In this document: positions 11,310-63,580 of the stretch, one piece after another
Position numbering within the stretch: the stretch's first letter is position 1
How the letters are laid out: every line of letters begins with the position of its first letter
Source of the DNA: Eledone cirrhosa
Taxonomy: Eukaryota
Length of the DNA: 64,000 nucleotides
NCBI GenBank assembly: GCA_964016885.1
Contig: OZ024761.1
Span: forward strand, 620,001-684,000
Direction of reading: 5' to 3'
Notes under the pieces: generated by a model
The model's input: the letters and a program-made list of their open reading frames with translations, nothing else
Told to the model about the DNA's origin: nothing
Databases searched by the model: none
Program-made: the position numbers and the translations under genes

Positions 11310-11349
<40 letters not shown>

Positions 11350-11640
11350 AACAAATAACGAAACGAAATTAAATTTCGTTTCGTTTGTAACTCACTTTTG
11401 TATGACTGACGCTTAAACAATTAAGTTAAAGATGTACATCCATATATGTATACTGAAATACTAGTATGTATATGAATACACACACGTATACATATGTAGA
11501 TGTACCAAGTTTTTTCACTGGTCACTTTACTGTGAGTGGCCAGCTATTCTGTATGTAAACACACAGACAAACCGGTTTTTAGAGTCATACTGGTTTTTGA
11601 GGAAACACCTTTCCTCTATTCTCCAGAAAGCCAGACAAGG

Positions 11641-11685
11641 AATATTGAACTAGTTTCGTTGTTGTTACAACTCATCAGCAATATT
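11641..11685 (-). ncRNA. Type I hammerhead ribozyme (467-bp unit)
   Basis: Minus strand reads AATATTG-CTGATGA-GTTGT aaca ACAAC-GAA-ACTAGT-T-CAATATT. Confidence 0.88.
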
Positions 11686-12107
11686 TACCTATCTTCCGGC
11701 CTCTCTAGAGAATCGTAAAAGCACATATCGTTATATGCTTTTTCTATGAAAATTAGTAGTGGGCAGACTAACCTGCATAGAGTGTGAGTAAGTACCGGTT
11801 CAACGGAGACGATAAAAACAAATAACGAAACGAAATTAAATTTCGTTTCGTTTGTAACTCACTTTTGTATGACTGACGCTTAAACAATTAAGTTAAAGAT
11901 GTACATCCATATATGTATACTGAAATACTAGTATGTATATGAATACACACACGTATACATATGTAGATGTACCAAGTTTTTTCACTGGTCACTTTACTGT
12001 GAGTGGCCAGCTATTCTGTATGTAAACACACAGACAAACCGGTTTTTAGAGTCATACTGGTTTTTGAGGAAACACCTTTCCTCTATTCTCCAGAAAGCCA
12101 GACAAGG

Positions 12108-12152
12108 AATATTGAACTAGTTTCGTTGTTGTTACAACTCATCAGCAATATT
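12108..12152 (-). ncRNA. Type I hammerhead ribozyme (467-bp unit)
   Basis: Same motif as 11641-11685, offset +467. Confidence 0.88.
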
Positions 12153-12574
12153 TACCTATCTTCCGGCCTCTCTAGAGAATCGTAAAAGCACATATCGTTA
12201 TATGCTTTTTCTATGAAAATTAGTAGTGGGCAGACTAACCTGCATAGAGTGTGAGTAAGTACCGGTTCAACGGAGACGATAAAAACAAATAACGAAACGA
12301 AATTAAATTTCGTTTCGTTTGTAACTCACTTTTGTATGACTGACGCTTAAACAATTAAGTTAAAGATGTACATCCATATATGTATACTGAAATACTAGTA
12401 TGTATATGAATACACACACGTATACATATGTAGATGTACCAAGTTTTTTCACTGGTCACTTTACTGTGAGTGGCCAGCTATTCTGTATGTAAACACACAG
12501 ACAAACCGGTTTTTAGAGTCATACTGGTTTTTGAGGAAACACCTTTCCTCTATTCTCCAGAAAGCCAGACAAGG

Positions 12575-12619
12575 AATATTGAACTAGTTTCGTTGTTGTT
12601 ACAACTCATCAGCAATATT
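12575..12619 (-). ncRNA. Type I hammerhead ribozyme (467-bp unit)
   Basis: Same motif as 11641-11685, offset +934. Confidence 0.88.
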
Positions 12620-13041
12620 TACCTATCTTCCGGCCTCTCTAGAGAATCGTAAAAGCACATATCGTTATATGCTTTTTCTATGAAAATTAGTAGTGGGCAG
12701 ACTAACCTGCATAGAGTGTGAGTAAGTACCGGTTCAACGGAGACGATAAAAACAAATAACGAAACGAAATTAAATTTCGTTTCGTTTGTAACTCACTTTT
12801 GTATGACTGACGCTTAAACAATTAAGTTAAAGATGTACATCCATATATGTATACTGAAATACTAGTATGTATATGAATACACACACGTATACATATGTAG
12901 ATGTACCAAGTTTTTTCACTGGTCACTTTACTGTGAGTGGCCAGCTATTCTGTATGTAAACACACAGACAAACCGGTTTTTAGAGTCATACTGGTTTTTG
13001 AGGAAACACCTTTCCTCTATTCTCCAGAAAGCCAGACAAGG

Positions 13042-13086
13042 AATATTGAACTAGTTTCGTTGTTGTTACAACTCATCAGCAATATT
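13042..13086 (-). ncRNA. Type I hammerhead ribozyme (467-bp unit)
   Basis: Same motif as 11641-11685, offset +1401. Confidence 0.88.
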
Positions 13087-13842
13087 TACCTATCTTCCGG
13101 CCTCTCTAGAGAATCGTAAAAGCACATATCGTTATATGCTTTTTCTATGAAAATTAGTAGTGGGCAGACTAACCTGCATAGAGTGTGAGTAAGTACCGGT
13201 TCAACGGAGACGATAAAAACAAATAACGAAACGAAATTAAATTTCGTTTCGTTTGTAACTCACTTTTGTATGACTGACGCTTAAACAATTAAGTTAAAGA
13301 TGTACATCCATATATGTATACTGAAATACTAGTATGTATATGAATACACACACGTATACATATGTAGATGTACCAAGTTTTTTCACTGGTCACTTTACTG
13401 TGAGTGGCCAGCTATTCTGTATGTAAACACACAGACAAACCGGTTTTTAGAGTCATACTGGTTTTTGAGGAAACACCTTTCCTCTATTCTCCAGAAAGCC
13501 AGACAAGGAATATTGAACTAGTTACTCACAGTAAAGTGACCAGTGAAAAAACTTGGTACATCTACATATGTATACGTGTGTGTATTCATATACATACTAG
13601 TATTTCAGTATACATATATGGATGTACATCTTTAACTTAATTGTTTAAGCGTCAGTCATACAAAAGTGAGTTACAAACGAAACGAAATTTAATTTCGTTT
13701 CGTTATTTGTTTTTATCGTCTCCGTTGAACCGGTACTTACTCACACTCTATGCAGGTTAGTCTGCCCACTACTAATTTTCATAGAAAAAGCATATAACGA
13801 TATGTGCTTTTACGATTCTCTAGAGAGGCCGGAAGATAGGTA

Positions 13843-13887
13843 AATATTGCTGATGAGTTGTAACAACAACGAAACTAGTTCAATATT
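13843..13887 (+). ncRNA. Type I hammerhead ribozyme (467-bp unit)
   Basis: Stem I aatattg/caatatt, core CTGATGA at 13850-56, stem II GTTGT/ACAAC, GAAA at 13871-74, palindromic stem III ACTAGT. Predicted GUU cleavage after 13880. Confidence 0.9.
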
Positions 13888-14309
13888 CCTTGTCTGGCTT
13901 TCTGGAGAATAGAGGAAAGGTGTTTCCTCAAAAACCAGTATGACTCTAAAAACCGGTTTGTCTGTGTGTTTACATACAGAATAGCTGGCCACTCACAGTA
14001 AAGTGACCAGTGAAAAAACTTGGTACATCTACATATGTATACGTGTGTGTATTCATATACATACTAGTATTTCAGTATACATATATGGATGTACATCTTT
14101 AACTTAATTGTTTAAGCGTCAGTCATACAAAAGTGAGTTACAAACGAAACGAAATTTAATTTCGTTTCGTTATTTGTTTTTATCGTCTCCGTTGAACCGG
14201 TACTTACTCACACTCTATGCAGGTTAGTCTGCCCACTACTAATTTTCATAGAAAAAGCATATAACGATATGTGCTTTTACGATTCTCTAGAGAGGCCGGA
14301 AGATAGGTA

Positions 14310-14354
14310 AATATTGCTGATGAGTTGTAACAACAACGAAACTAGTTCAATATT
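14310..14354 (+). ncRNA. Type I hammerhead ribozyme (467-bp unit)
   Basis: Same motif as 13843-13887, offset +467. Confidence 0.88.
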
Positions 14355-14776
14355 CCTTGTCTGGCTTTCTGGAGAATAGAGGAAAGGTGTTTCCTCAAAA
14401 ACCAGTATGACTCTAAAAACCGGTTTGTCTGTGTGTTTACATACAGAATAGCTGGCCACTCACAGTAAAGTGACCAGTGAAAAAACTTGGTACATCTACA
14501 TATGTATACGTGTGTGTATTCATATACATACTAGTATTTCAGTATACATATATGGATGTACATCTTTAACTTAATTGTTTAAGCGTCAGTCATACAAAAG
14601 TGAGTTACAAACGAAACGAAATTTAATTTCGTTTCGTTATTTGTTTTTATCGTCTCCGTTGAACCGGTACTTACTCACACTCTATGCAGGTTAGTCTGCC
14701 CACTACTAATTTTCATAGAAAAAGCATATAACGATATGTGCTTTTACGATTCTCTAGAGAGGCCGGAAGATAGGTA

Positions 14777-14821
14777 AATATTGCTGATGAGTTGTAACAA
14801 CAACGAAACTAGTTCAATATT
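14777..14821 (+). ncRNA. Type I hammerhead ribozyme (467-bp unit)
   Basis: Same motif as 13843-13887, offset +934. Confidence 0.88.
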
Positions 14822-15243
14822 CCTTGTCTGGCTTTCTGGAGAATAGAGGAAAGGTGTTTCCTCAAAAACCAGTATGACTCTAAAAACCGGTTTGTCTGTG
14901 TGTTTACATACAGAATAGCTGGCCACTCACAGTAAAGTGACCAGTGAAAAAACTTGGTACATCTACATATGTATACGTGTGTGTATTCATATACATACTA
15001 GTATTTCAGTATACATATATGGATGTACATCTTTAACTTAATTGTTTAAGCGTCAGTCATACAAAAGTGAGTTACAAACGAAACGAAATTTAATTTCGTT
15101 TCGTTATTTGTTTTTATCGTCTCCGTTGAACCGGTACTTACTCACACTCTATGCAGGTTAGTCTGCCCACTACTAATTTTCATAGAAAAAGCATATAACG
15201 ATATGTGCTTTTACGATTCTCTAGAGAGGCCGGAAGATAGGTA

Positions 15244-15288
15244 AATATTGCTGATGAGTTGTAACAACAACGAAACTAGTTCAATATT
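15244..15288 (+). ncRNA. Type I hammerhead ribozyme (467-bp unit)
   Basis: Same motif as 13843-13887, offset +1401. Confidence 0.88.
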
Positions 15289-15710
15289 CCTTGTCTGGCT
15301 TTCTGGAGAATAGAGGAAAGGTGTTTCCTCAAAAACCAGTATGACTCTAAAAACCGGTTTGTCTGTGTGTTTACATACAGAATAGCTGGCCACTCACAGT
15401 AAAGTGACCAGTGAAAAAACTTGGTACATCTACATATGTATACGTGTGTGTATTCATATACATACTAGTATTTCAGTATACATATATGGATGTACATCTT
15501 TAACTTAATTGTTTAAGCGTCAGTCATACAAAAGTGAGTTACAAACGAAACGAAATTTAATTTCGTTTCGTTATTTGTTTTTATCGTCTCCGTTGAACCG
15601 GTACTTACTCACACTCTATGCAGGTTAGTCTGCCCACTACTAATTTTCATAGAAAAAGCATATAACGATATGTGCTTTTACGATTCTCTAGAGAGGCCGG
15701 AAGATAGGTA

Positions 15711-15755
15711 AATATTGCTGATGAGTTGTAACAACAACGAAACTAGTTCAATATT
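15711..15755 (+). ncRNA. Type I hammerhead ribozyme (467-bp unit)
   Basis: Same motif as 13843-13887, offset +1868. Confidence 0.88.
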
Positions 15756-17188
15756 CCTTGTCTGGCTTTCTGGAGAATAGAGGAAAGGTGTTTCCTCAAA
15801 AACCAGTATGACTCTAAAAACCGGTTTGTCTGTGTGTTTACATACAGAATAGCTGGCCACTCACAGTAAAGTGACCAGTGAAAAAACTTGGTACATCTAC
15901 ATATGTATACGTGTGTGTATTCATATACATACTAGTATTTCAGTATACATATATGGATGTACATCTTTAACTTAATTGTATATATATATATATATATATA
16001 TATTAAAATGACAACAGAAGGCCGGACTGGAAGATATGCTGTAAATTTTAATTGTATGTACATATATGTATGCATGTGTATATATGTATGTATATATGTA
16101 TATACATGTATGCATGTGTATGTATATGCGCAGGGACATAGAAATAATCAGGCTGGATATCCGATCACGAGGTTAAACCACTAGGAGTGAAGGACCCCTA
16201 GCCTTTGTCAGGGCATTCTTCTAGGAGAAGGCAACTCAGGAAACTGGGATAACTCCAACATAAAACCTGCATCTCAGTAGTTACCGATGATGTTGACCTT
16301 TTCTTCTTTTCGACTTATAGCTACTGTCGCTCAGAGAGTGGGATTGGCTCAGTGCACAGTCTTTCCTTCTCTCTTTATAAAACATCTTCACGCACAGGCA
16401 TTGCACGATAGTATTAATTGATAATTATAATTAATGTTATATCGTGTAATGGCCATACTCGATAACGAGGGGGCAGCCATCGTGTATGTATGTGTGCTGA
16501 AAAAAATTCTAGTACTGCAAATTTTCACAATGAGTAAGGTACTATATAGATTTGAATACGGTGGATTGGCAGTATCGGTAGAGGGTCGGGCGCCATGCTT
16601 TGAAGCATAGAGTTACCTCCCTTTATGATCTGAGTTCAAATCCCGCCGAGGTTAACTTTGCCTTTCATCCTTACGGGGTCGATAAAATAAAGTACCAGTA
16701 ATGCACTGGGATAATTGCTGGCCTTGTGCCAAATGTAGAAACAATTATATAAAATTAAGAAAATTAGTTGTAACGTGCGCAATTAGTTGTCATGTGTGGC
16801 CCTCAGACAACACATATGTGACCCATGCGGCCCTCGGGGGACCCTCAGTTTGACATGCCTGCTTTTAACCCTTTTCATACTGAACCATTTGAAACCGTCC
16901 CTAGTTCTATGATACCAAGTTGTTTATATTTATTTAAATCCTTCCATCATAATTTCATGTAAGAACCATTGTTAAGTTATGTTTCAAACATCAATTTAAT
17001 AATGAGAAAGTTAATTGTACTAGTGAATCCAGCCAAAATCATGAATATTTTCAAAATTATTTGAAAACCTTGGGTGGTCGCGCTTGGGGATCCAGCCAGA
17101 TCAATTGGTAATGGTTGCTTCTGACAAGACCTGCTGGAAGGTGTGCTTAAAGACTCTGTCCCTATGACACTTCTAGGAATATGTGGGT

Positions 17189-30682: not shown

Positions 30683-32217
<1,535 letters not shown>

Positions 32218-37254: not shown

Positions 37255-40200
37255 TTTCTTTATTAGCCACAGGGGCACAAAAGAAGGGGACAAATACAAA
37301 GGGGGAAGTTTACATACAATAAAAACGTGTAAAATGTTATCACAGATGGAATTTAAAAGTTAGTCGATTTTCCCCAATAGAGGGAGACAGTTTATATGGG
37401 TAACACATACCCCCGAAAAAAAATGTGCAACCCTCATCTCCAGGAGTACGAAGAGTTTGTACTCCTTTCCTCTCCTCCTCCTTTTCCTCAACCTACAGGC
37501 TGATATAGAGAGAAGGCCCATTCACTCGGGCCATTCTCGCCACTTTCACCCACCTTTCATAAAACTTGCTGGGGTACAGCACCTCTCTCTCCATCCTGAT
37601 TCTTCTTCCAAAGTGGTATTTGAAAAAAAGAATCAGTTGTTGGCCGGAGAGAAAGGTGTCTGACCTCAGCCCTTTCAACCTTGTCCACCATACAACCTCT
37701 TTCGCCATAGCTATCACACAAAGGAAAACCGCCTATACTTCGTTTTTGAAGGAGGGTGGCGGTTTGATCATGACAATGGACTCGGTGGTCAACCGGATTG
37801 GTCCCACCCGCGACAATAGTCGTTCTACATAGCCCCACAGGTCAGTGACGCCCGGGCACTGTATGAATGCGTGCGCGACGGTTTCTTCGTCTCGCACGCA
37901 CCTCGGACAGATCTTTTTTGCAGGGTCCCTGCCCGGGCGCCCATGTCTGTAGAGCTTGTCTCGAACTGGTAGAGCTCCTCGGTAGCACTGCCAGGCCAAG
38001 GACTTTTGGAAGTTGTCCATCAGTCCCGGGCGGAAGGTCCTACCGAACAGACTGGCCAGTTCATCTTCCTCTACGCCTAGAGTTTCACCGAGCGCGTCGT
38101 CGCACTTACTGCGGATCAACCCTCTATAGAATGACGAAGTGGAGTCTCCACTGATCGCCGGGTCCGCCTGCCAGAGGGCTGTGAGCGCCTGAGCACATTC
38201 GATGTGCCAGTCGCCCATTTTCCTCGGTCTTTGCTTGACCCAGGACTGCAGCTCGGTCAGCGAGACGAGTCGTGTGAAGGCTCGCCTCACGAACGGGGCC
38301 CACACCGGTTGTCCGGTGAGGAATACGTAGAGATGCCGCAGCCTGAGCGCGTGTTTGCGCATCGTCAACCACGGCATCCCCAGCCCTCCGTTAGAAGGGT
38401 GTTGGCAGCAGATGGATCTTCTCACCAAAGGAGCCCGCCTCTTCCAAAGGAATCGGAAGAGCGCGCGCTCCATTTTGGCGAGCGTTTTGGCTGGACAAGG
38501 CACGACGGTCAAGCAGTAGTAGATGACGGACGCTCAACCTTTCAAGGATAGTTTGCACTCGGCCCACTTCTGGGTGAGTGCAAACACCTTGGCCGTCACT
38601 TCGTTCCAGTTCTTCTCCACCTGGAGGTCCGGACCAAACCAGACCCCGAGCAGCTTTACCGGTCCTTCCGTCCAGCGTCCGACGACGCCATCGGAAGGCA
38701 TCGGTTTGCCTCTCCACGATCCGAGTTGCAAACCGATGGACTTGTCCCGGTTCGACACCATTACTGTCACGTCGTCGGCGTAGGCCGACGTCGCTTTCCG
38801 CAGTCCCGGTTCCAGAGGGATGCCCTGCAATAGCTCCAGCTTCCGCAGTAGTGGCTCGAGAGTCAGTACGTACAGAAGGGAGGAGAGAGGGCATCCCTGT
38901 CGAATGGATCGTGTAATATGGAACGGCTCCGAGAGGTAGCCGTTCACCTTGACCCTTGAGCAGATCTTGCTGTTGTGCATTGCAGCAATCCAGCCACTGA
39001 ACACGGGTCCGAAGCCTGCCGCCTCGAGCACCGCATCCAGGTAACGATGGTCAACCCTATCGAAAGCCTTAGACTGATCCAAGTTGATCAGGGCCCCACC
39101 GAAGCCGGGTTTATACCCTACCCTCTCTATGATATATCGCATGAGGTGGAGGTTGTCGTGTATGGACCTGGCCGGGATTGCGCATATCTGCGCTTCTCCC
39201 ACCAGGTTCTCGACGACAAGCGCCAGCCTCTTTGCCAACACCTTGGCCAAAATCTGTAACTCTGTGTTTAGCAGAGTTATGGGCCGGAAGCTGCCTATGT
39301 CATCCCCCTTATTCTCGTCCTTCCTGATTAGTGTGACCACGCCCCCGGTTACAGAACTGGGAATTCTCCCATTCTGTTGCCAGTTGCAGTAGACCGCTTC
39401 CAGGAGACCGGAAAATAAGTCCGGCATTGCTACGTAAAATTCGTAGGGTAGACCGTCGAGACCTGGAGATTTGCGTTTGCCGCATTGGCTCAGCGCGTCC
39501 CCTATCTCAGTGGCTGAAATCGGCTTTTCGCAGAACTTTGCCTCGCTGTCCGAGAGTCGCGGTAGGCCGTCGAGGTATGGACCGAAATCCATAGCCTCTC
39601 CCAGCGCGCCGCCCCTCCCGAACAGTTGAGCAAAGTGCCGCTGAAAAGCCGTACACATCTGCTTCGGCTCACGTATCACGCGTCCGTTTTGGTCCTTCAA
39701 AGACCGAATCGTGGACTTGTTGCCACTTTTTGCCTCCGTCACTCGGGCCCAGCTAACAGCTTTGGCTCCCTCGTTTCCCAGAGCACGTATTTTGCTTCTG
39801 ACAACGCAGCCCTCGTGCTTTGCGTCGAAGATCTTGTCCAAGGCCGTTCTCGTTGCTAGCACGCTGACTACGTTGCCACTTCTAATTGCCTCTTCTACTT
39901 TATCTACCAGTTCCTTCTCGGTTCTATTTCTATCTAACGCTAATTCTTTACTAAAGACTATCGAGTCTAATCTAACTGCCCTCTTGAGAGAGTACCACCA
40001 TCTGTTGTTGACAATGGCCCCTGTCAAGTGCTGTTTAACTAAAGTGCTAATCCGTCTACTGTAGGCTTTGCTTGTCGGTAACAAGTTCAGCTTCCAGTAG
40101 CCGGGTCCTTGTCTATGGGTTCTATCAAGGTTGGCCATGCAGGTCACTAGTTTGTGATCTGAATAGGCAACCATGAACATTTGTGGACAGCTTAACATAT

Positions 40201-42996
40201 CCCTATCCTTATTTCTAACTAGAACCCTATCTAGGTACGATCTAGATGTTCCGCTACGATTACTCCACGTCCACAGTGGCACAGTCGGAAAATCTAGTCG
40301 ATATCTATCGGCCAGGTCAAATCGGTCGATTAACTGTTTGAGGCTGTTACACCCCCCCCCCCCTTTATCGGGACATGCTCCCACATAGTCCCAACGTGCA
40401 TCTAGGATTCCATTCCAGTCCCCCACTAAAAGCAAGGAGCGGGACGTTCCCAGAAAAGTCTCTAGACGTTTGAAGAAGTCTGGCCGTGGTGTCCCGGATG
40501 GGGCATATGCGGCCACCAGCCTGAAGGCTCCACCTTCACTACCGTCGACGTCTAGGACCACCAGTCGACCCTCCGGGTCCAGATGTATCGTCTGTGTTAC
40601 GAGGCCCTGGTGTTTCCGCAGCAAAACGGCAACTCCGCCCCCACCCCCGGTTGACAGAGAGATGCGTAGATCTCAAAGTCATCGAAGATGGGGGCCAGCT
40701 GTCGCTCGCTGTGGATCCTGGACTCGCAAATGGCTACCACATCCATACTGTGCGACCTGAGGTCGTTTAAGAGTTTGCCCTGTTTCCAGGGCATCCCCAG
40801 GCCGCGTACGTTCACACATCCAACTCTTATATTGGCCATGTTGGTGCTGAAAAGTTAAAAGAGGAAATGAGATCACTCACCCTTCGTCTCCTGGGGACCA
40901 GGCCGCACGATTTCCATGTGGGTGTTGGAGGGGTTGTCTTGATGGGTGGTGGTTTCCGGCGGGGTGGGGACAGAGATGTTTGGTGGGGTGGGGTCTGATG
41001 GGATGGGGGTGTCTGGGGTGGGGAGACATTTGAGAAGGACGCGGTTGAGTGGTTTCACGCAGGAATTCCCCACATCCTTCTCAAATGTTTCTTTTAGAGA
41101 CCTATAAGTTTGTATAGGGACCCTAATCAGTTTTAGGTTCAGTTTTTTGCTATTTTTGTGGGCAAAAGTTTTCCCTTCGGTTTTCACCGAAGGGTCGTTC
41201 GTGATGGTCTCCATTAGTGTTTTGTTTTCAGTGTTTATGTAAGTGTAAGTGTAATTTTCTTGTGTTGTGTTTGTTTTTGTCTGTAGTTCTTGTGTGTGCT
41301 TTCGTTTTGTTGTAGGTATTTTGTTTTCAGGAGGTGGGGGTTTTATTTGTGATGTTTTTGTTGTTTGTGTTGGTGGTTGTATGTTTGTGGTAGTGTTTGC
41401 TAGTTTTTGCTTTTGTGATGTCTTTTCTTTCTTTTCGAGCGATGGGGTTCTCCCTCGTCTTCACTGGGTGATGGCGAGATAGCCTCATCTGTTGTATCGT
41501 CTGTGTGATTGGGGAGGGGTATGTCTTGGGGAGCTGTTGTGTCTGTATGTGATTTTGCAGTGGTTTTAGGTGGAGTGGGGTTGGGTGGGACTGTGTTTGT
41601 TGTGGTTATTTTTGTGTGTTGGTGTTGTTGTTGTTGTGGTGGTGTTGGTGGTTGTGTTGTTTTGATGGGTGTCGGCAGAAGAGCCTTTTTTTAGTTCATT
41701 AATTTAGGACAGGAAGCCCTCAGGTGACCCCTGCTAAAGCAATGGTAACATGAAGGCCGCCTACCCTCAACCGAAAAGTTTATGTAGGTGAGTCCGTCCA
41801 GGAGTACACGTTGTGGGATCATAGCTATTCGCTCTGGGCTCATTTGCACCAGAACTTCAATGCTAGTCCCATTGAATACATCTCTGGAGGACTTTCCTAC
41901 TGACAGTATTCTGTCTTCATCAAAATTGATGAAGCCGCACAGTATCCACCATATGTTCACCTTTGGTGTGACACTCGTGATTCTGATCTTTTGTGTCCTT
42001 TTTCCCATGTATGTAGGGGAAACGGTGTACAGGTGGGATACAATTGGCGACACAGAGTAATTTTGGGCCGTCAATTGATCCTTCATGAGTACCGAAATAC
42101 TCCCAAAAAGTTTGCTTCTTTGAATGAATGCAATATCATTCATTGAATTTTTGAAAACCAGTTCAATTTCTTTCTGTGACAATTGGACTGGTTTTCGGGT
42201 AGAATTGGAAACTGTCCTAAAAACTATCGTTTTGGGAGCAGTTTCCTTGCGAATTTCTACCGGAGAATTGATGCTGAAAGCACCATTTTTTTCGCAAGTG
42301 ACATAACTCCTAGCGTCCTTTAAAAGTTGTTCAGCATTTGTTATGTCGAGATATATCAATTCCTCCTTTTTTTAACTTTCTCTGCAAAGGAGATTTTTGG
42401 TTTGTTTGTGGAATCCGTATTGGTGGTGTTGTCATTATTGTTGTTATTGTTGTTGTTATTCTTGTCACCGATGTTGATATTATTCGTATTTTCCTTGGTG
42501 TTGTTGTTGTCTTTGATGCTGGTGTTATTGGTGTTGTCTTTATTTTTTTCTTTGTTGTTGTTATCATTGTTGCTTTTATCATCATTATTGGTGTTGCTGT
42601 TATTTTTGTGATCATTGAGCTGTTTGGTGTCATTTGTGTTGTTTGGATATGAATTCGTTTTTACATTTTCATTTCGTCTTTCCATCTCTATAGTATCTAG
42701 TGAAGAAGACGTTGTTGACTGCGAGCTTTGTAGTCTTACCTCCTCTCCACCACCATTATCGTTGGACGCAGCGTTCATAACGTAATCAAACTTTTACCAT
42801 ATTTTTTCCAAGATTCGATGGAGAAAAAATTTTTCAAATGGATATTCCACCCCTGTAGGGGCGAAAATGAGTTGACCCACCACCTGAAGGTCCAGACTGG
42901 GGGTCAAGTTACACAATGATATAAAATTTAACTAAAAACTTACGTTTTTTTCTTACATAAATTAACGGAAACTTCTCCGCGAAGTTACACACGTCT
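37255..42996 (-). mobile_element. Full-length Tx1/L1-type LINE (frameshifted)
   Basis: ORF1 42778->40873 with CCHC knuckle CYHCFSRGHLRASC. ORF2 40839->37493 has APE, RT and Cys domain in 4 pieces. AATAAA at the 3' end. Confidence 0.96.
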
Positions 42997-47517: not shown

Positions 47518-50500
47518 GATTTCATTTATTGGCAACAAGGGCCGACATATAGGGGACAATACAAAAGACTGGGACAGTGGGTTTTACAGAAAAATCGTGT
47601 AAACAATATGAATAAACAAAGTAACAATAACAAAGTAACAATAAAGTAACAATAAAATTACAACAAGAAAAAATTCCCCAATAGGGGGGATGACCACCTA
47701 GGGTTCGCTCAGGTACCCCACCAGCCTTGAACGACCCGATGCTTCGAGAGCACCCTGGAAGGGCACCCCTCTCCTCTTCAAATTTACCTACCTACAGCCG
47801 CATAACCAGAGTAGGCCCACTCACACGGGCCATTCTCGCCACATTCACCCACCTTTCAGCAAATGTACTGGGGGGCAGCACTTCTCTCTCCACCCTCACC
47901 TTCCTTTCCAAGTGAAACTTGAAAAAGTTGATGAGGGATTGGCCGAAGAGAAAAGTGTCTGTCTTCAGTCCTTTCAACCTCGTCCACCATACAACCTCTT
48001 TCGCTACTGCCACCAGACAGAGGAAAATTGACTGCCCTTCCTGGCCAAAAAAAGGCGGGGGGTCGATCTTCACTATGGACTCGGCCGATAGCCGGATCCG
48101 TTCTACACGCGACAACAGCTGTTCAACATAACTCCACAAGTCAGTAATGCACTGACACTGGACGAGTGCGTGCAGAACGGTTTCGTCGCTCTGCGTGCAT
48201 CTCGGGCAGGTCCGTCTGACAGCACTTCCGTGCCTGTAGAGTTTATCTCGAACCGGCAGTGCACCCCGGTAGCACTGCCAAGCGAGAGATTTTTGAAAAT
48301 TATCCATCGTCCCCGGCTCGAAAGTCCTCCGGTACAGACTGGTTAGTTCGACTTCGTTGACTCCCAGAGCCTCTCCGAGTGCGTCGTCGCACTTGCCCAC
48401 CACTAATCCTCTATAGAACTCGAGAGTGGAAGTTCCACTGACCGCATTGCCCGCCTGGTAGAGGGCAGTGAGTGCCTGGCAACATTCCAGATGCCAGTCA
48501 CCCAGTCTCGGTCTCTTCTTGACCCAGGACTGCAACTCAGTCAAAGAAACGAGCTGCGGAAAGGCCCGTCTGACAAACGGCGACCACACCTGTTCACCGT
48601 TTAGACAGAATATCTGGAGATGCCGCAGCCTCAGCGCGTGCCTGCGCATCATTAGCCACGGCATGCCCAGCCCTCCACGTAGAGGGTGCTGGCAGCAGAT
48701 GGACCGCCTCAGCAGCGGAACCTGACCCCTCCACAAGAATTTGAAGAGGAGCCGCTCCAAGATGGCGAGGCGCGAACGGGGGCAAGGGACGACAGTCAGA
48801 CGGTAGTAGATGACGGACGCGAGGTACGCGTTCGCCACCTCCGCCCGACCTTTCAGTGATAGCTTCATCCCAGCCCATTTCTGGGTGAGACTGATTAACC
48901 TGCCCGTCACCTAGTCCCAATTCTTATCCACCTGGAGGTCTGGACCGAACCAAACCCCTAGCAACTTTACCGGTCCGTTCGTCCAGCGCCTAACGATGCT
49001 GTTGGACGGCATGGACTTGCCTCTCCAGGTGCCGAGTTGCAAGCCTACTGACTTTTCCGGGTTAAGTTTTGCTCCCGTCAACCTTTCATATTCCTCCAAT
49101 AAGTTGCCGACCACCTCGATTTCTGAGGTGTCCGACACCATCACGGTGATGTCGTCCGCATAAGCCGACACAGCCTTTCCGCGTCCCGGTTCGAGCGGGA
49201 TGCCCTGCAACAGCTCCAGCTTCGGCAGTAAAGGCTCTAGAGTCAATACGTACAGAAGGGAGGAGAGAGGGCACCCTTGACGAACCGATCGGGAGACCTG
49301 AAACGGTTCCGAGAGGTGGCCATTAATTTTGACCATCGAGTAGGTGCCGCTGTGCATTGCAGCGATCCAGCTTCTGAAGACGGGGCCGAAGCCAGCCGCC
49401 TTGAGGACAGCCTCCAGGTACCGATGGTCGACCCTATCGAATGCTTTCGATTGATCTAAATTGATCAGAGCCCCACCGAAGCCAGGTTTACACCCCACCC
49501 TCTCTATGATGTATCGCATTAGGTGGAGGTTGTCGTGTATGGACCTGGTTGGGATTGCGCAAGTTTGCGCAACCAAATCCCCGACGACAAGCGCCAACCT
49601 CTTCGCTAACACTCTGGCCAAAATCTTAAACTCTGTGTTGAGCAGAGTTATGGGCCTGAAATTGTCTAATGTGTCCCTCTTGTTCTCGTCTTTCCTTATC
49701 AGCTTCACTACGCCCCGGTTCACAGAACTGGGAATACTCCCGTTTTGCTGCTAGTTGCAGTAGAGGGCTTCGAGGAGATTGGAGAACAAGTCTGGCATAT
49801 TTACGTAAAGCTCGTAGGGCAGACCATCCAAACCGGGTGACTTGCGCCTCATGCAGCTGACAAAGGCATCCTGAATCTCGGCTGAAGTAATTCGCCTTTC
49901 GCAGCGCCCAGCGTCAGCCGTCGAGAGTTGCGGCAAGCCATCGAGGTAGGGACTGAAGTCCGCCACCATCTCTGACCCGCCACTTCCCCCGAACAACCGA
50001 GCAAAATGTTGGCGAAAGGCCTCACACATCCGCTTGGAATCGTTCAGCTCGTGTCCGTCTCGGTCAGTCAAAGACCGAATCGTGGTTTTATTACCACGCT
50101 GGGCCTCTGCCACGCAGGCCCATCGAACAGCTTTGGTTCCCTCGTTTCTCAGAGCACGCGCCTTAGCTCTGACAATGCAACCTTCGTGTTTCGCATTGAA
50201 GAAATGGTCTAATGCCATTCTCGCCGCTAGCACGTCAGTTGCAATGCCACTACCAATAGCCTCGTCTAACTTATCTACCAACTCCCCTTCCTTTCTATTT
50301 TTCTTTAACGCTACTTCTTTGCTAAACTCTATCGACATTACTCTAATCTCTCTTTTGAGAGTCCCCCACCATCTATTGTTGACGACTCCCCCTGTCAACT
50401 TTTTCTTAACTAAATTGTTGACCTGGTCCCTGTAAGCCTTACGAGCCGGAAATGACATGTTTAACTTCCAGTAACCAGGTCCTAACCTACTCGTCTTATC

Positions 50501-53413
50501 TAGGTCGACCATACAGATCACAAACTTGTGATCTGAATAGGCGACCGTTTCAAAACGTGGACAGCTTACACTATTTCTGTCTATTTTCCTAATGAATATC
50601 CTGTCTATATACGATCTAGATGACCCTATGCGGTTAGCCCAGGTCCACACTGGCGCATTAGGGAAATCTAGTCGGTACCTGTCAGACAGTTGGAACTGGC
50701 TGATCAGGTTCTTGAGGCTTTTGCATCCCCCGCTCCTATCGGATACTCCCACACAGTCCCAGCGTGCGTCTAAGATGCCGTTCCAGTCCCCCGCTAACAG
50801 TAAAGGGCGAGACGTACCCAGAAAGGCTTCCAGGCGTCTAAAGAAGTCCGGCCATCCTGCCCCAGTAGGAGTATAGACGGCCACCAGTCTAAAGGCACCA
50901 CCTTCATTATTGTTCACGCCCAGGACCACCAACTTTCCGTCCGGATCCCGGAAGATCGACCTTACCTCCAGATCTAGGCCTTTCCTAAACAGCACTGCCA
51001 CCCCGCCTCCCATTCCCGGCTGGCTAACAGATGCAAAGATCTGATAGTCGTCGAAAATGCGGGCTAGTGCGCGCGTGTCGGAAATCCTGGTCTCGCTGAC
51101 TGCAATTACATCCATTTCTATAGACCTGAGGTCGTTGAGCAGGTGACCCTGCTTCCAGGATTATCCCAGGCCTCGAACATTTAAACATCCTACTCTTAAT
51201 ACGGCCATGTTGGCAGGTTAAATAGAGAGAGAGGAAGGTTTACTTACCTTCCGGGCTCTTGTGAAGGTCGGGTTGTTCGACCTCCATAGTTAGTGGGGTT
51301 TCTTTTGGGAACCCCTTTAAAAGTCTTGAAGTGGGTTTTACGTTCGGGGTTCCCACGTCCCGAGGAAAGCTGTCTCGTATTTCTTTGAATATGTCGAGCG
51401 ACATTCGCACCAGAACCAAATCTTCCGGCACGCGAAATGTGCTCGATTTAAAAATGTCCCCCTCTTTTTGTATATTTTCACTTCGTGCTACGAGGGCCAT
51501 CAGTTCCTTGTTGGCCCGCTTGACGAGCACGAAGTTTTGTATGTTTTGTTGGTGTGATTTTATTTGTTTGCGTGGCTGTGGTGGTGATGGTTTTGGTGGT
51601 GTTGTTTCGGTTGTGTCTGTGGTTTCAGATGTTTGTGTGTATATTTGTTCTTGCGTCTGTTTAGGTTGTTTGCGTTTGGGGGATTCTGGTGATGGTGATG
51701 GTGGTGTTGATGTTGGTGTTATTGGAGAGATGTTTGCGTGGGTGGTGTCTGCGTTTTTTATTGTGGGTGCTTTTGTGCTTTGTTGAGTTTTTTTTTCTTT
51801 TTGTGTTTCCTCTTTTGTATTTTGGGGGATTTGGGATTTCCTTCATTTTCACTACTGGTAGATGAGGGGTCTGTGTCTGTAAGTGTGTCTGTATGTATGT
51901 TTAAGGTTTTATTGGTGTGTGTATTTTGGGGGGAGGGGGAATTTGACAGCTTTCCTCGTTTCCCCCCTGGGTGGTCAATGTTGGTGGTGGTCTTTCTATT
52001 GGTGTTGTTGTTGGTGGTTTTGCCGGTGCAGGTGTTGGTTGTGGTCCTCGCCCCGGCGACGGCAGCAGTGGAGCCATTCGACCCCTTGCTTCTTTCAGCA
52101 GTTGAGGGCAGAAGGCTCGCAAATGGGTTTTTTCCCCACAAACAAAACACTGCGGCCTTTTGCCTTCGGTCATAATGTGAATGACCGTCCCATTCTGAAG
52201 GCGGGTGTGGTCTGGGATTGTCTTCACATTCTCGGGCCTGATCTGGAGAAGGATCTCCAGGTCAACCCCGGACCAGTCCTCTCTGGCCGTTCTGGTCACT
52301 TCTATAGGGACTGTATCCGTCCCCTCCACAATCACACATCCCAGAAGCCACCACATGTCAAGTCCTGGTGGGATTCTGGGAATTCGGAGACGGGCCGTTC
52401 TTTTTCCCATGTGGGAGGGGTGGGTACATTATGACCTTGCTGGTTTTGCAAGGAGTCATAGCGTGTTTCATAGCGAGGGCTTCTGACTTGAACAACACCG
52501 AAATGGTGCCGTACTGTCTGCCCCTCTCTATCTACTGGGTGTCTTCTCTGATGCACCTCAGCGCGACTTCGACATCTTCTTGTGGGATTAAAGCTGCCCT
52601 TTTGGTTTGTTCTGAGATGCATCTATAATGCACCGTTTTGCGCTCCACTGCCTCAATAGCTTCTACCGGGACAGTTAAGTTGGCCCAGGTTTGCTCTTGC
52701 TTGATGAGCTTCCATGCCTGGGCCAACTTTTCATCTTTGTTTGAGAGGTTCATGTTGAAGCATGGCCTCTTTTTTGCTGCTGCCGCAGCGAAAGTGTTCT
52801 TGTTTTCGTTGGGGGTGTTGTTGTCGTTGTCGTTGTTCTTGTTGGTGTTGTTGTTACCACTGTCGCTGTTATCATTGTTGTCTTTGTTGCCACTGTTGTT
52901 CTCGGTGCAGTTGGTATTGTTGCTGTTGGTGTTGTCGCTATTTGTTTTCATGTTAGTGGTGTTGATATTGTTGTTGCATTTGTTTTTTTTTTTCGTTATC
53001 TGTATTTTCGTTGTCGCTGTTACTGTCATTTTTTTTCAAAATTAGAGTTCTCATTGGTATCATTGGTGTCTTTGTTTACATTGTTTGTGGTGGTGTTTGT
53101 GTTATCAATTTGTGTTAATTTCGCTGTAGCGCTCCTACGTCGTTGTCGCACGACAGCAGACATTTCGCTGGGGCGGGGGGGGGGGGGGGGGCTGGCTGGC
53201 TCAGCCATGTTTTTTTTCTCCGCAAATTTTTTAACATGTAAAAAAAAAGTTCAAATATTTGGGCCAAAAGGCCCAAATATTATACTTTCCCCTTCACAGG
53301 GCAAAGTCTAAGGGCTTATATCCCTTACACAACAAGAACTATTTAACAACAAATAATTTTAACAGGCAAATAAAGCGACTTACTGGGAGCGAGCAAAATA
53401 CGTCCGATTAGAC
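47518..53413 (-). mobile_element. Full-length Tx1/L1-type LINE, second family, in (AAT)n
   Basis: ORF1 pieces 53208->51240 (CFVCGEKTHLRAFC). ORF2 about 51209->47792 with in-frame stops. (AAT)n on both flanks. Confidence 0.96.
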
Positions 53414-53761: not shown

Positions 53762-56700
53762 GTTCGTCTACAGCGTGACGGTGCCACGCTAAAATCACCG
53801 GGGGTGATGAAACCACCGGTAGTTATGTAACCATACATTCACCAATCCTCGATATGAGTGCTTAAATGTCGAACCTAAACAGTTCGAATAACGGTGAAGT
53901 GGAGACTGGAATGTCATGTGACAGACTCTCACCCAATAGGTGCTCCCTGGCTCAGCAGCAGGGACCTGGCTGTCATCCAAATACTGCTGGTGTAGGAGGA
54001 AGAAGAAGAAGGAAAGGGACCAGAACCAACTGGACGAAAGAAATGAATAGAACTGTTATGCAATGTTACCTGAAGAGTAACCCCAAGGAGAAAGGCTATA
54101 GGAAACGGATGCATAACATCTGGAACGAGATTGGTCTATTTAAATTAGATGAACAAAAATTGGCCGGGCAGGCTCGGGTAATAAGAACTAATGGGTGGAT
54201 AAGCGAGCTGGAACTGGAGGAACTGAGCAGAGAGATTAGGTTGGAAATGGAGAGTGGAGTATGCCAGGCAAACGAGCCAGTAGGAAATGAAGGTGAAGAG
54301 GTTGAGAGAACGGAGGAACCATCCGAAGTAGACAATGATCTGAATGCTGAAATAAATAATACCTGGAACATAGATACGGCCATTGAGGAGATGAATGCTG
54401 ACGGGCTAGGACAAGATTTGGTTGATATCCTAAACTTAGTGGTAGATGAATTGAACAATGATAGTGGGAAACCTATGAACCTAAGATTTGTAGACAGGAA
54501 AAAGTTAAAAGAAACAACAGCTAAGGTAAACAAAGTCATCCCATACCTTGAGGCGAGGAGCCTTCACCAGTGCAACAATATCCTCAAAGCAACAGCAAAT
54601 GCGGTGAGGAAATTACTTGGCATAAAAGCGAGAGGAAACAACAAACAAGAAAGATCAGAACCTTCGTGGAAGAAACGACTGAATGGTCAAATCAAGGAAA
54701 TGAGAAATGACATTGGAAAGCTTGAGTCCCTACTGAATGGGACGCTAAAAAACATAGACACTAAAAATAGACTGGAAATAAAGTACAAAACTAGGAGGAA
54801 AAAGCTAAATATTATCATAGAGGAACTGAAGCAACGCATTGTAGCAAAGAGTGCAAAAATTAGGCGATACGAGAGCAGAGTCAGTCAGTATAGACAGAAC
54901 CGCATGTTTGACAACAACCAGTAGATGTTGTTTGGACAGCTTGAAGGGAAAGAAAGAGGCAACGACTTGATCCCTGAGGCGGAACAAACTAAGACATTCT
55001 GGAGAGGAATATGGGAGCAGGATGTTAAACATAATGACCAGGCAGTGTGGATTGAGACAGTACAAAAGATTAGTGAACAGGCACACCAACAAACTGATTT
55101 GAGTATCACAGTTGAAACTCTTAAGGGGCAGGCCAAAAAACTAACCAACTGGAAATCACCAGGCCCAGATGGTGTGCAGGGGTATTGGATTAGAAATATA
55201 ACATCCCTCCACCCGAAACTGACAACCATGTTCAATGACTGCTTGATGTCAGGTGAGGTACCAGAGTGGTTGACAAAAGGTACTACAGTTCTGGTAATGA
55301 AAGACCGAATCAAGGGTAATGATGTTACCACATATAGACCTATCACATGTCTGTCCGTAATGTGGAAACTGTTGACAAGCATTGTGTCTGAGGAAATCTA
55401 CCATCACCTCCACACAAACAACTTGTTACCGGACGAACAGAAAGGATGCCGAAAGAAGTCCCGTGGTACAAAGGACCAGTTACTTATTGATAAGATGGTA
55501 ATGAGGAATTGCAAGAGGAGACACACTGGTCTTGCCATGGGATGGATAGACTACAAAAAGGCATTTGACATGGTGCCTCATTCTTGGATCACCAAAAGCC
55601 TAGAGATCTTCAAGGTGGCAGATAACATCAGACAGTTGTTAGGCAAAAGTATGAAGCCCTGGAAAACAGAGTTAACATCAGCTGGAGAATCCTTGGGAGG
55701 TGTGAAGATCAAGAGAGGTATCTTCCAGGGAGATAGTCTGTCCCCTCTGTTGTTTGTCCTTGTCCTGATGCCCCTGACCATTATACTGCGAAAAGTGAGA
55801 GCAGGATACAAGTTGGGAAAGGGAGAGCTTACCATCAATCACCTCCTCTTCATGGACGATCTTAAGCTCTTCGGGAAGAGTGGGAAGGAGTTGGATGTGC
55901 TTGTTGACACTGTCCATATTTTCAGCAATGATATATGTATGCAATTTGGTATTAGTAAGTGTGGAGTCCTTGTGATGAAGAGGGGTAAATTGAGCAGAAG
56001 CAACGGAATCCAGGTACCAACAGGTGAGATGATAAAGGAAATTGACACTGAAGAAGGATACAAGTATTTGGGTGTTCTGGAGGCTGATGACATCAAGAAC
56101 AAAAAAAATGAAGGAATTGATAAGATCTAAATACATTCGGAGACTAAGGAGCGTATTGAAGTCACATCTGAACAGTAGGAATGCCATAAGTGCAGTAAAT
56201 TCCCGAGCTGTGTCTATTATTAGCTACAGTGCGGGAATTCTGAGATGGAATGTTGCTGAACAAAAAGAAATGGATAGGAAGCTATTGACTATCTACAACA
56301 TGTTCCACAAGAGGAGTGATGTCGATAGACTCTACTTAAGAAGATCTGAAGGTGGAAGAGGCCTTATCAGCATAGAGGACTGTGTTCAGATGGAGAAAAA
56401 CAACCTGCACAAATACGTGATTGATAGTAAGGAGCCAATGCTCAGAATTGTACTGAAGGAGAGGACAATAGACCAGGGGATGTCCAAGGAGGAAATAACA
56501 ACAAGGAGAAAGAGCAGCCTTCATGAAAAATCCCTTCATAGTACCTTCTTTGAGAAAACTGAATTCAGAGATCCACAGACATGGAACTGGTTAAAAAGAG
56601 GAGACCTTAAAAAGGCTACAGAAGGAATGCTAATGTCTGCGCAAGAGCAGGCCCTCAAAACGAAGTGGCTGAAACACCATATTTACAAGGAGGAGGCTAG

Positions 56701-57349
56701 CCCACTGTGCAGGATCTGTGGAGAGAGAGAGGAGACTGTGGCTCACATTGTATCCGAGTGTAAACACCTAGCCCAGACTCACTATAAAGGCTGGAGACAT
56801 GATGTGATGGGCAGGGTGATCCACTGGCACCTATGCAAAGTAAACAATTTACCACATTCTGAGAAGTGGTATAAGCATAAGCCAAAGTCGGTGATAGAAA
56901 ACGATCAGGTGAAGGTGCTGTGGGATTTTAGGATACAGACAGACAAGAAACTGGAACACAATAGACCTGACCTGGTGGTTTTGGACAAGGAAAAAAGATC
57001 GTGCCTGATTGTGGATGTGGCCTGCCCATTCGACACGAGAGTTCAATAGAAGGAGAGGGAGAAAATTAACCGATAGCAGGACTTAAAGTGGGAGGTAAAA
57101 TGGATTTGGAACTACCATGAAGTCAAAGTGGTCCCGATTGTCATAGGCGCACTAGGTACTATCTCAAAAGGTTTCCAGGGATGGTTAAAGAAAATTGGTC
57201 CCGCCCCGCTTTTTGGAACGCTTCAAAAAGCATGCTTGCTGGGAACAGCAAGAACCCTCCGATACGTCCTGAATATCTGAGGCTGTAGGTAATGGCTTGA
57301 TATTCATTTCAACAAACTTTCCAGTTAACTAACATCAATGACTGAGACT
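53762..57349 (+). mobile_element. R4/Dong-type non-LTR retrotransposon (RT plus restriction-like endonuclease), near full length
   Basis: Single disrupted ORF 53866-57280 with IFQGDSLSPLLF, HLLFMDDLKLF, CRICGEREETVAHIVSEC, RHD and NRPDLVVLDK..IVDVACP. Stops at 54922 and 57047, frameshift at about 56100. Confidence 0.93.
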
Positions 57350-61835: not shown

Positions 61836-62563
61836 GTATGTAGGTAGGTAGGTAGGGAAGAACATGTGTGTAAATGTAATATCTAAATGTGAAAGTCAGT
61901 GATCCATTGGCGAAGGAAACAAGATGAAAAATATACATACCAATACAGGACAGGAGTTCTTCTGTAATAGTTGTCAGCGTATATGTGACAAACAGTATTT
62001 AGGAAGGCAACAAGTAGAAGTAACGATTAATTCGAGTAATGCCTCATATATATATAGATGCCTGGAATGTGACAATCTCGATACCTGAGACCTTAATAGA
62101 AATATGACCAATGGTTAACATACGTGTGTGTATGTATATATATATAAATATATACAGCCCCCCCCCCCACACACACACACATATATATATGGATATATAT
62201 ATATGTGTGTGTGCGGGTGTGTATAGTGATATGGTCTGATTATATAACCAAACAAGGACGTTTTGTTCAAATGTAGTTCACATGTACACTCACACACACA
62301 CACACATATACACTCACACACACATACACACAGACATGCTTTATATATATATATATATGTATATATATATGTATATATATATATGTATATATATATGTAT
62401 ATATGTATATATATATACAATTAAGTTAAAAATGTACATCCACATATGTATACTGAAATACTAGTATGCATATGAATACACACACGTATACATTAATTTT
62501 CATAGAAAAGGCATATAACGATATGTGCTTTTACGATTCTCTAGAGAGGCCGGAAGATAGGTA

Positions 62564-62608
62564 AATATTGCTGATGAGATGTAACAACATCGAAACTAGT
62601 TCAATATT
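62564..62608 (+). ncRNA. Type I hammerhead ribozyme, covaried stem II
   Basis: AATATTG-CTGATGA-GATGT aaca ACATC-GAA-ACTAGT-T-CAATATT. Confidence 0.9.
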
Positions 62609-63029
62609 CCTTGTCTGGCTTTCTGGAGAATAGAGGAAAGGTGTTTCCTCAAAAACCAGTATGACTCTAAAAACCGGTTTGTCTGTGTGTTTACATACAG
62701 AATAGCTGGACACTCACAGTAAAGTGACCAGTGAAAAACTCGGTACATCTACATATGTATACGTGTGTGTATTCATATGCATACTAGTATTTCAGTATAC
62801 ATATGTGGATGTACATTTTTAACTTAATTGTTTAAGCGTCAGTCATACAAAAGTGAGTTACAAACGAAACGAAATTTAATTTCGTTTCGTTATTTGTTTT
62901 TATCGTCTCCGTTGAACCGGTACGTACTCACGCTCTATGCAAATTAGTCTGCCCACTACTAATTTTCATAGAAAAGGCATATAACGATATGTGCTTTTAC
63001 GATTCTCTAGAGAGGCCGGAAGATAGGTA

Positions 63030-63074
63030 AATATTGCTGATGAGATGTAACAACATCGAAACTAGTTCAATATT
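63030..63074 (+). ncRNA. Type I hammerhead ribozyme, covaried stem II
   Basis: Same motif as 62564-62608, offset +466. Confidence 0.9.
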
Positions 63075-63399
63075 CCTTGTCTGGCTTTCTGGAGAATAGA
63101 GGAAAGGTGTTTCCTCAAAAACCAGTATGACTCTAAAAACCGGTTTGTCTGTGTGTTTACATACAGAATAGCTGGACACTCACAGTAAAGTGACCAGTGA
63201 AAAACTCGGTACATCTACATATGTATACGTGTGTGTATTCATATGCATACTAGTATTTCAGTATACATATGTGGATGTACATTTTTAACTTAATTGCTTA
63301 AGCGTCAGTCATACAAAAGTGAGTTACAAACGAAACGAAATTTAATTTCGTTTCGTTATTTGTTTTTATATATATATATTTGTATATATATATATATGT

Positions 63400-63431
<32 letters not shown>

Positions 63432-63472
63432 GTATATATATATGTATATATATATATGTATATATATATATG

Positions 63473-63504
<32 letters not shown>

Positions 63505-63548
63505 TGTATATATATATGTATATATATGTATATATATATATATATTTG

Positions 63549-63580
<32 letters not shown>

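Follow-up and report, generated by a model that had tools for sequence, protein, structure and literature searches.

Two insertions of a hammerhead-bearing tandem repeat in the Eledone cirrhosa genome differ by a paired exchange in ribozyme stem II

Introduction

Metazoan non-LTR retrozymes, as set out in the available text of Cervera and de la Pena 2020 (PMC7229834) and Li et al. 2026 (bioRxiv 10.64898/2026.07.22.740005), are low-GC tandem repeats with one type I hammerhead ribozyme per unit and a self-paired fold, present in thousands of copies in two related families in genomes that also contain Penelope-like elements (PLEs). The same parts of these sources still state the enzyme and the mode that mobilise animal retrozymes as open. 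Covariation in genomic hammerhead families has been reported previously (available part of PMC4209133). As regards the PLEs, the accessible sections of Craig et al. 2021 (PMC8557442) describe inverted 5'-truncated copies that are tailed at one end and target (TA)n, and those of Frangieh et al. 2024 (PMC11167929) show that two internal reverse transcription start sites bound the tail and that both strands of AT-rich DNA are cleaved.

Here we analyse a 64,000-nucleotide stretch of the Eledone cirrhosa genome (assembly GCA_964016885.1, contig OZ024761.1, positions 620,001 to 684,000 of the forward strand; hereafter the window) in the context of the 3.0 Gb host assembly. The repeat element found in it belongs to a known class, that of the non-LTR retrozymes, within which it forms a new family; it sits in (TA)n, is predicted to self-cleave and may pass through an RNA circle. 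All the retrozyme features listed above are shared by the element, the unit of which (466-469 nt, GC 36%) exceeds the 150-450 bp range given in PMC7229834 and falls inside the 51-972 bp of 10.64898/2026.07.22.740005; head-to-head arms, fixed ends (here termed A and B), (TA)n targeting and a subfamily-level compensatory history are absent from the descriptions in the available text of both. With EN+ PLEs (PMC8557442 and PMC11167929, as far as their available text goes) the element has in common 5'-truncated tandem copies, an inverted copy at the 5' end, a one-ended tail, two internal reverse transcription start sites and AT-rich or (TA)n targets. Unlike the PLEs described there, the retrozyme unit lacks an ORF, its tail is ~70 nt rather than 30-40, and its arms are built as multimers of a short unit and continue through the ribozyme site.

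Results

The window carries two insertions of one hammerhead-bearing repeat

The two insertions lie at 11345-15979 (467-nt unit) and 62418-63367 (466-nt unit), and their parts are collected in Table 1. The preliminary description had put the divergence of the two arrays at about a dozen differences per unit, and our count agrees: units phased at the cleavage site differ in 13 of 467 columns (12 substitutions and 1 indel). Within the 11.3-16.0 kb array, 8/8 full units are identical. The units contain no internal ORF of at least 130 aa, the sole listed frame being a run-through into the TA flank.

Table 1. Parts of the two retrozyme insertions, in window coordinates
Feature	Position	Strand	Description
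Short inverted arm, insertion 62418-63367	62418..62493	-	Unit positions ~154-229; 76 nt with 100% complementarity to 63221-63296; fixed B end on the 3' side, adjoining (TA)n
Long arm, insertion 62418-63367	62494..63367	+	Retrozyme unit of 466 nt, 1.9 copies in tandem; 5' truncation at unit position 359; stops at the fixed A end (~position 300) against (TA)n
Left target flank, (TA)n-rich	62342..62417	.	
Right target flank, (TA)n-rich	63367..63580	.	
Sister insertion, minus arm	11345..13523	-	4.7 units of 467 nt, T-A state, A end left
Sister insertion, plus arm	13524..15979	+	5.3 units, T-A state (e.g. T13858/A13869), B end right
Type I hammerhead, copy 1	62564..62608	+	Has stem I, a CUGAUGA core, a stem II of 5 bp, GAAA and a short, palindromic stem III; cut predicted after 62601
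Type I hammerhead, copy 2	63030..63074	+	Predicted cut after 63067
Stem II pair 2, A-T state	62579..62590	+	A62579/T62590; second copy A63045/T63056

Each tandem unit contains the hammerhead motif on one strand only (plus). In Rfam the motif matches Hammerhead_HH9 (RF02275, clan CL00010) over the full-length core and stems, with a shorter, palindromic stem III, at E 2.3e-7 and 36.5 bits, which is below the gathering score of 52; at the gathering threshold there were no Rfam matches within the window, and ribozyme classes other than hammerhead gave no match. Matches of microRNA type at 62740-62820 are likewise sub-threshold and reflect an AT-rich hairpin, and we rejected them.

Both hammerhead copies in the insertion at 62418-63367 bear out the stem II difference on which the preliminary description was built: stem II reads GTTGT-AACA-ACAAC in the 11.3-16.0 kb array, and GATGT-AACA-ACATC at 62578-62591 and 63044-63057. 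The exchange of the T-A pair for A-T by two substitutions 11 nt apart was found as described (62579/62590 and 63045/63056), as was the identity of core, stem I and stem III between the unit sequences of the two arrays. A further change (aaaagca to aaaggca) does turn an A-U into a G-U pair in another hairpin (A>G at 62510/62976); the allele is a minor one, found in 4 of the 74 rows that have letters there. The remaining claim, that a change from gcagg to gcaaa weakens a possible minor stem, failed: the hairpin of the best-supported fold is made stronger by it, AA at 62942-62943 pairing with TT at 62963-62964 (A-U), and it is the GG form, a rare allele, that gives G.U.

The stem II exchange divides the family into two large subfamilies

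Using a search pattern in which the ribozyme flanks were fixed and the 12 stem-loop II bases left free, we found 8,717 matching ribozyme copies in the whole assembly. At stem II pair 2, 3,520 of these are A..T and 5,179, a figure obtained by subtraction from 8,717, are T..A; the other states total 18 (A..non-T 4, T..non-A 8, C or G first 6), the majority being single units within otherwise normal arrays. The preliminary description would have been undone by a genome in which most copies carry only one of the two substitutions; half-swapped copies number 5 of 8,717 (A-A 2, T-T 3). The swap divides the family into two large subfamilies.

To place the swap on a tree we took one row per insertion from 102 insertions, most of them located within the first 82 Mb of contig C1; 91 had at least 90% of the unit, and 75 were kept after 16 picked for an odd stem II were dropped. 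These 75 rows comprise 34 A-T and 41 T-A, and the two swap columns alone separate the groups perfectly. In a maximum-likelihood tree of 76 insertions the stem II label changes once, as it does in 96% of bootstrap trees, and by parsimony the label-changing branch bears exactly the two swap substitutions and no others. With the two swap columns removed the tree needs 5 changes, and no well-supported branch forces more than one; a single origin is compatible with this reduced tree but depends on the swap columns for its support. The closest A-T and T-A insertions are separated by 3 sites.

Since the sister family (below) has A-T at stem II pair 2, A-T is taken as ancestral and T-A as derived. The tree makes one event, not many, the most likely history of the swap, and because of this neither the two arrays of the window nor the 8,717 copies count as independent evidence. 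One locus, L037 (G000:C1:149585117-149588152, G000 being the host assembly), has units T-T, T-T and A-T (2 of 3 T-T) and is placed at the branch point, one of its monomers lying one step from each subfamily. L037 may possibly be a caught intermediate, which would fit a path A-U to U.U to U-A; an independent later mutation is also possible.

Tests for selection on the RNA fold

With a structure predicted from one unit and no phylogeny, two-sided changes that keep the pair occur in 4 of 151 pairs, against 0.59 expected (P=0.001). Along the tree, paired swaps on the same branch number 2 on inner branches, against 0.15 expected (P=0.012, structure again taken from one unit), and 5 against 0.16 expected if the hairpin at unit positions 107-128 is drawn in its other register, a post hoc choice; at the tips there are no paired swaps in 180 changes. 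Outside the ribozyme, perfectly linked paired swaps are found at 110/125 and 111/124 in this hairpin (window 62708-62729) and at 36/45 in the hairpin 32-49 (window 62633-62650), and structural selection thus seems, from the alleles at these sites, to extend beyond the ribozyme. Pairing is kept by 22 of 38 shared alleles versus 25 of 71 singletons (P=0.027); the other 16 of the 38 shared alleles break predicted pairs. The 12 core columns took none of 114 inner-branch changes and 2 of 180 tip changes. The plus strand folds with a z-score of -10.7 (0 of 100 shuffles as good) and the minus strand with -6.1.

A sister family in the same genome offers a comparison at greater depth. It comprises 29,474 ribozyme matches, is 72-78% alike to the unit over aligned pieces, has unit spacings of ~420-540 nt, and its insertions are likewise inverted and TA-flanked. 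The base of its stem II is U.U or C.A, not G-C (in G000, e.g. L169:8059-8107, L206:2581-2629, L170 and L153), and the U.U agrees with the description of the axolotl HHR_Amex2 in the available text of PMC7229834 and 10.64898/2026.07.22.740005. Among 45 distinct hammerheads from across the families (14 of 59 were left out, 11 picked for an odd stem II and 3 out of register), 6 of 14 hammerhead pairs have changed on both sides, and 91% of cells are paired, against 27-48% for slid partners; the count of pairs changed on both sides did not exceed the shuffle control (358/500; 45 hammerheads).

The preliminary description had taken the paired swap as good evidence of selection on RNA structure, and this held in part. 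It is supported by the excess on inner branches and by the 6 of 14 pairs changed across families; against it, the swap is one event, and in a structure-free linkage test 12 helix-embedded linked swaps compare with 9.3 expected, which is not significant. On balance, selection on the RNA structure of the unit appears likely.

Insertion ends point to a probable Penelope-type mechanism

With few exceptions the arms terminate either at B (unit position 228-234) or, ~70 nt away, at A (297-303), and adjoin (TA)n there. Loci were chosen by one end or by the ribozyme, never by the second end. Both ends could be classified in 52 of the 69 head-to-head insertions, the remaining 17 having an open or irregular end; the 52 are A/B in 50 cases, A/A in one and B/B in one, and with one duplicated A/B insertion set aside the count is 49 of 51 (P~6e-13). 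Both insertions of the window obey this A/B rule, with one arm ending at A and the other at B. When the arms of a single insertion are compared, 37 of 3,827 polymorphic cells differ, versus 30% between insertions, so that both arms come from one haplotype.

The predicted cut site is passed by 140 of 171 arms, and 5' ends fall at the cut in 5 of 176 cases, against 3.8 expected. Because arms pass the cut and 5' ends do not pile up there, we rejected a linear monomer as the template for reverse transcription, which leaves a circle or an uncleaved multimer. An array-fixed private allele is present in 12 of 40 arrays and 5 are fully homogeneous, figures that fit a circle and an uncleaved multimer alike. 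In older arrays DNA-level reshuffling is visible too.

The insertions show the features of PLE-type insertion: an inverted 5'-truncated copy, a tail at one end and an AT-rich target. The A/B ends with a shared haplotype are the Penelope 'tail' signature and support an RNA intermediate that would be copied by a Penelope-like reverse transcriptase (RT). PLEs are abundant in the host genome, with 150 scored GIY-YIG matches among 10,596 candidates, and RT together with GIY-YIG was found in 3 of 4 long ORFs scanned; the window itself holds a GIY-YIG endonuclease fragment of a PLE at 31151-31645 (+; Pfam PF01541). It is from the end structure that we infer a PLE RT/GIY-YIG protein as the enzyme that copies the retrozyme.

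One PLE family (L158, L162, L163, L166 and L172) carries a hammerhead in its 3' repeat, with U.U at the stem II base and a palindromic stem III, and has two 3' ends ~60 nt apart. In L172, a copy of this family with two arms, the ends lie 122 and 183 nt past the cut, the same architecture as in the retrozyme insertions; the family is a candidate for the driver type. Blastn, local alignment and a three-sequence A-B profile found no homology between the unit and 50 PLE (GIY-YIG) loci, and thus no homologous PLE pseudo-LTR in this sample, which takes in a minority of the PLE families.

The element also answers to the retrozyme class in its other traits: the repeats are short, low in GC, non-coding, tandem and dispersed, the monomer is self-paired and autonomous PLEs are present in the genome. 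The literature, supplements aside, yielded no description of this retrozyme family or of A/B-ended retrozyme insertions, and in the available main text of the Octopus vulgaris repeat paper the words 'ribozyme' and 'retrozyme' do not occur.

Discussion

The explanation that we favour, at a probability of about 0.75, is that the two arrays are separate insertions of a ~466-nt hammerhead family in which the swap was likely fixed once, in two steps, under RNA-fold selection, the non-LTR retrozyme probably being reverse-transcribed into (TA)n by a PLE. The tandem array would be transcribed, and neighbouring hammerheads would cut out monomers that are ligated to circles, as in characterised retrozymes (available text of PMC7229834). 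A Penelope-type RT/GIY-YIG protein would then cut (TA)n, and prime both DNA ends on a shared RNA template, at two internal sites that are fixed and lie ~70 nt apart; of this step the ends are observed, and the enzyme is the conjectural part. Copying of each arm would continue beyond the ribozyme site, once or many times over, until a random stop, giving the head-to-head arrays that we see. New subfamilies would be seeded only by templates with a working fold, and it is for this reason that the swap would have run from A-U through U.U to U-A, an order suggested by the tree, the outgroup and one U.U locus.

The swap might instead be the product of a single mutation, a template switch from one hairpin arm to the other during reverse transcription or DNA replication, and have risen neutrally with a successful subfamily, in which case it would say little about selection. 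There is no widespread intermediate lineage, and the four perfectly linked paired swaps all lie within short local hairpins; moreover, the rate of paired swaps on inner branches (2/114) is not significantly above that among unselected changes (1/477, P=0.097). Yet the difference reaches P=0.001 when the post hoc hairpin is counted, and paired swaps are nearly absent from the unselected changes (tips 0/180, unit-private 1/297). The stem II loop is unchanged and not inverted, which excludes a micro-inversion as the cause, a T-T copy occupies the branch point, and the conservation of the catalytic core does not depend on pairing. One-step template switching is accordingly disfavoured, and we regard it as unlikely. 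An origin as ordinary DNA satellites, spread by unequal crossover or DNA circles with pairing kept for DNA hairpins and not for RNA, is the least probable of the readings: some old arrays (L056, L061 and L122) do share variants among units, as from DNA-level expansion, but the insertions, dispersed in their thousands and flanked by (TA)n, have 3' ends that are fixed and 5' ends that are random, an invariant ribozyme core and frequent plus-strand G.U changes also speak against it, and the end structure largely refutes it.

A further reading has the circle replicating RNA-to-RNA in the manner of a viroid as well, with subfamilies as quasispecies lineages and arrays as their reverse-transcribed fossils. 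The unit is highly self-paired, near-identical units occur in sequencing runs with other organism codes (below), and RNA-RNA replication has been considered possible in mussel retrozymes (available text of PMC7229834) and asserted for a plant LTR retrozyme (available text of PMC9695139). A viroid-like replicon with a symmetric rolling circle would carry ribozymes in both polarities, but here the hammerhead is on the plus strand only; the minus strand folds much less well, the diversity forms an orderly subfamily tree with a mean distance of 3.7-6.9%, and retrotransposition accounts for everything seen. RNA-to-RNA replication of the element is not supported by these data and seems improbable to us. 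The term 'RNA-stage replicator' used in the preliminary description thus stands for a retrotransposon with an RNA intermediate, as the end structure indicates, and falls for RNA-to-RNA replication, the ribozyme being on one strand only. A bolder version, to which we give equally little credence, would make the circle a viroid-like replicon that moves between hosts, its lineages under RNA-level selection, with a dimeric Penelope RT periodically writing one circle from both cut DNA ends; were it true, the ~38,000 ribozyme copies would be a step-by-step fossil record of ribozyme evolution.

Returning to a retrozyme probably mobilised by a PLE, thousands of young copies record the exchange of a ribozyme pair, apparently via a U.U step, and supply natural single and double variants. 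The rule of one A arm and one B arm from one haplotype would be a clear trace, left in the genome, of double priming of the Penelope type on a single template, and points to the RNA region relevant to priming; together with the possible caught intermediate it makes the family a good test system.

Further observations

Part of the unit is present in public runs coded as 16 other organisms. In four of these (X4, X7, X13 and X17, each with another organism code), compared with window 62860-63330, the units are mostly 95-99% identical at mostly low depth and carry alleles also seen in the G000 subfamilies; three of the four cover both swap sites, and all three show both T-A changes together. We treat these units as a lead only, which may reflect related species, trace DNA or horizontal spread. 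The ribozyme pattern had no matches in metagenome contigs and none in viral contigs.

At 23730-26483, 37733-40672, 47792-51160 and 53866-57049 the window also contains broken frames that by eye we take to be LINE-type RT/endonuclease, presumably L1/Tx1-like and RTE-like. Hammerhead-like motifs with an A/T-rich stem I and a palindromic, TATA-type stem III occur at 541 (+), 368 (-) and 5033 (+); they have relatives in L164, L169, L175 and L178, and probably represent a further hammerhead-bearing repeat family.
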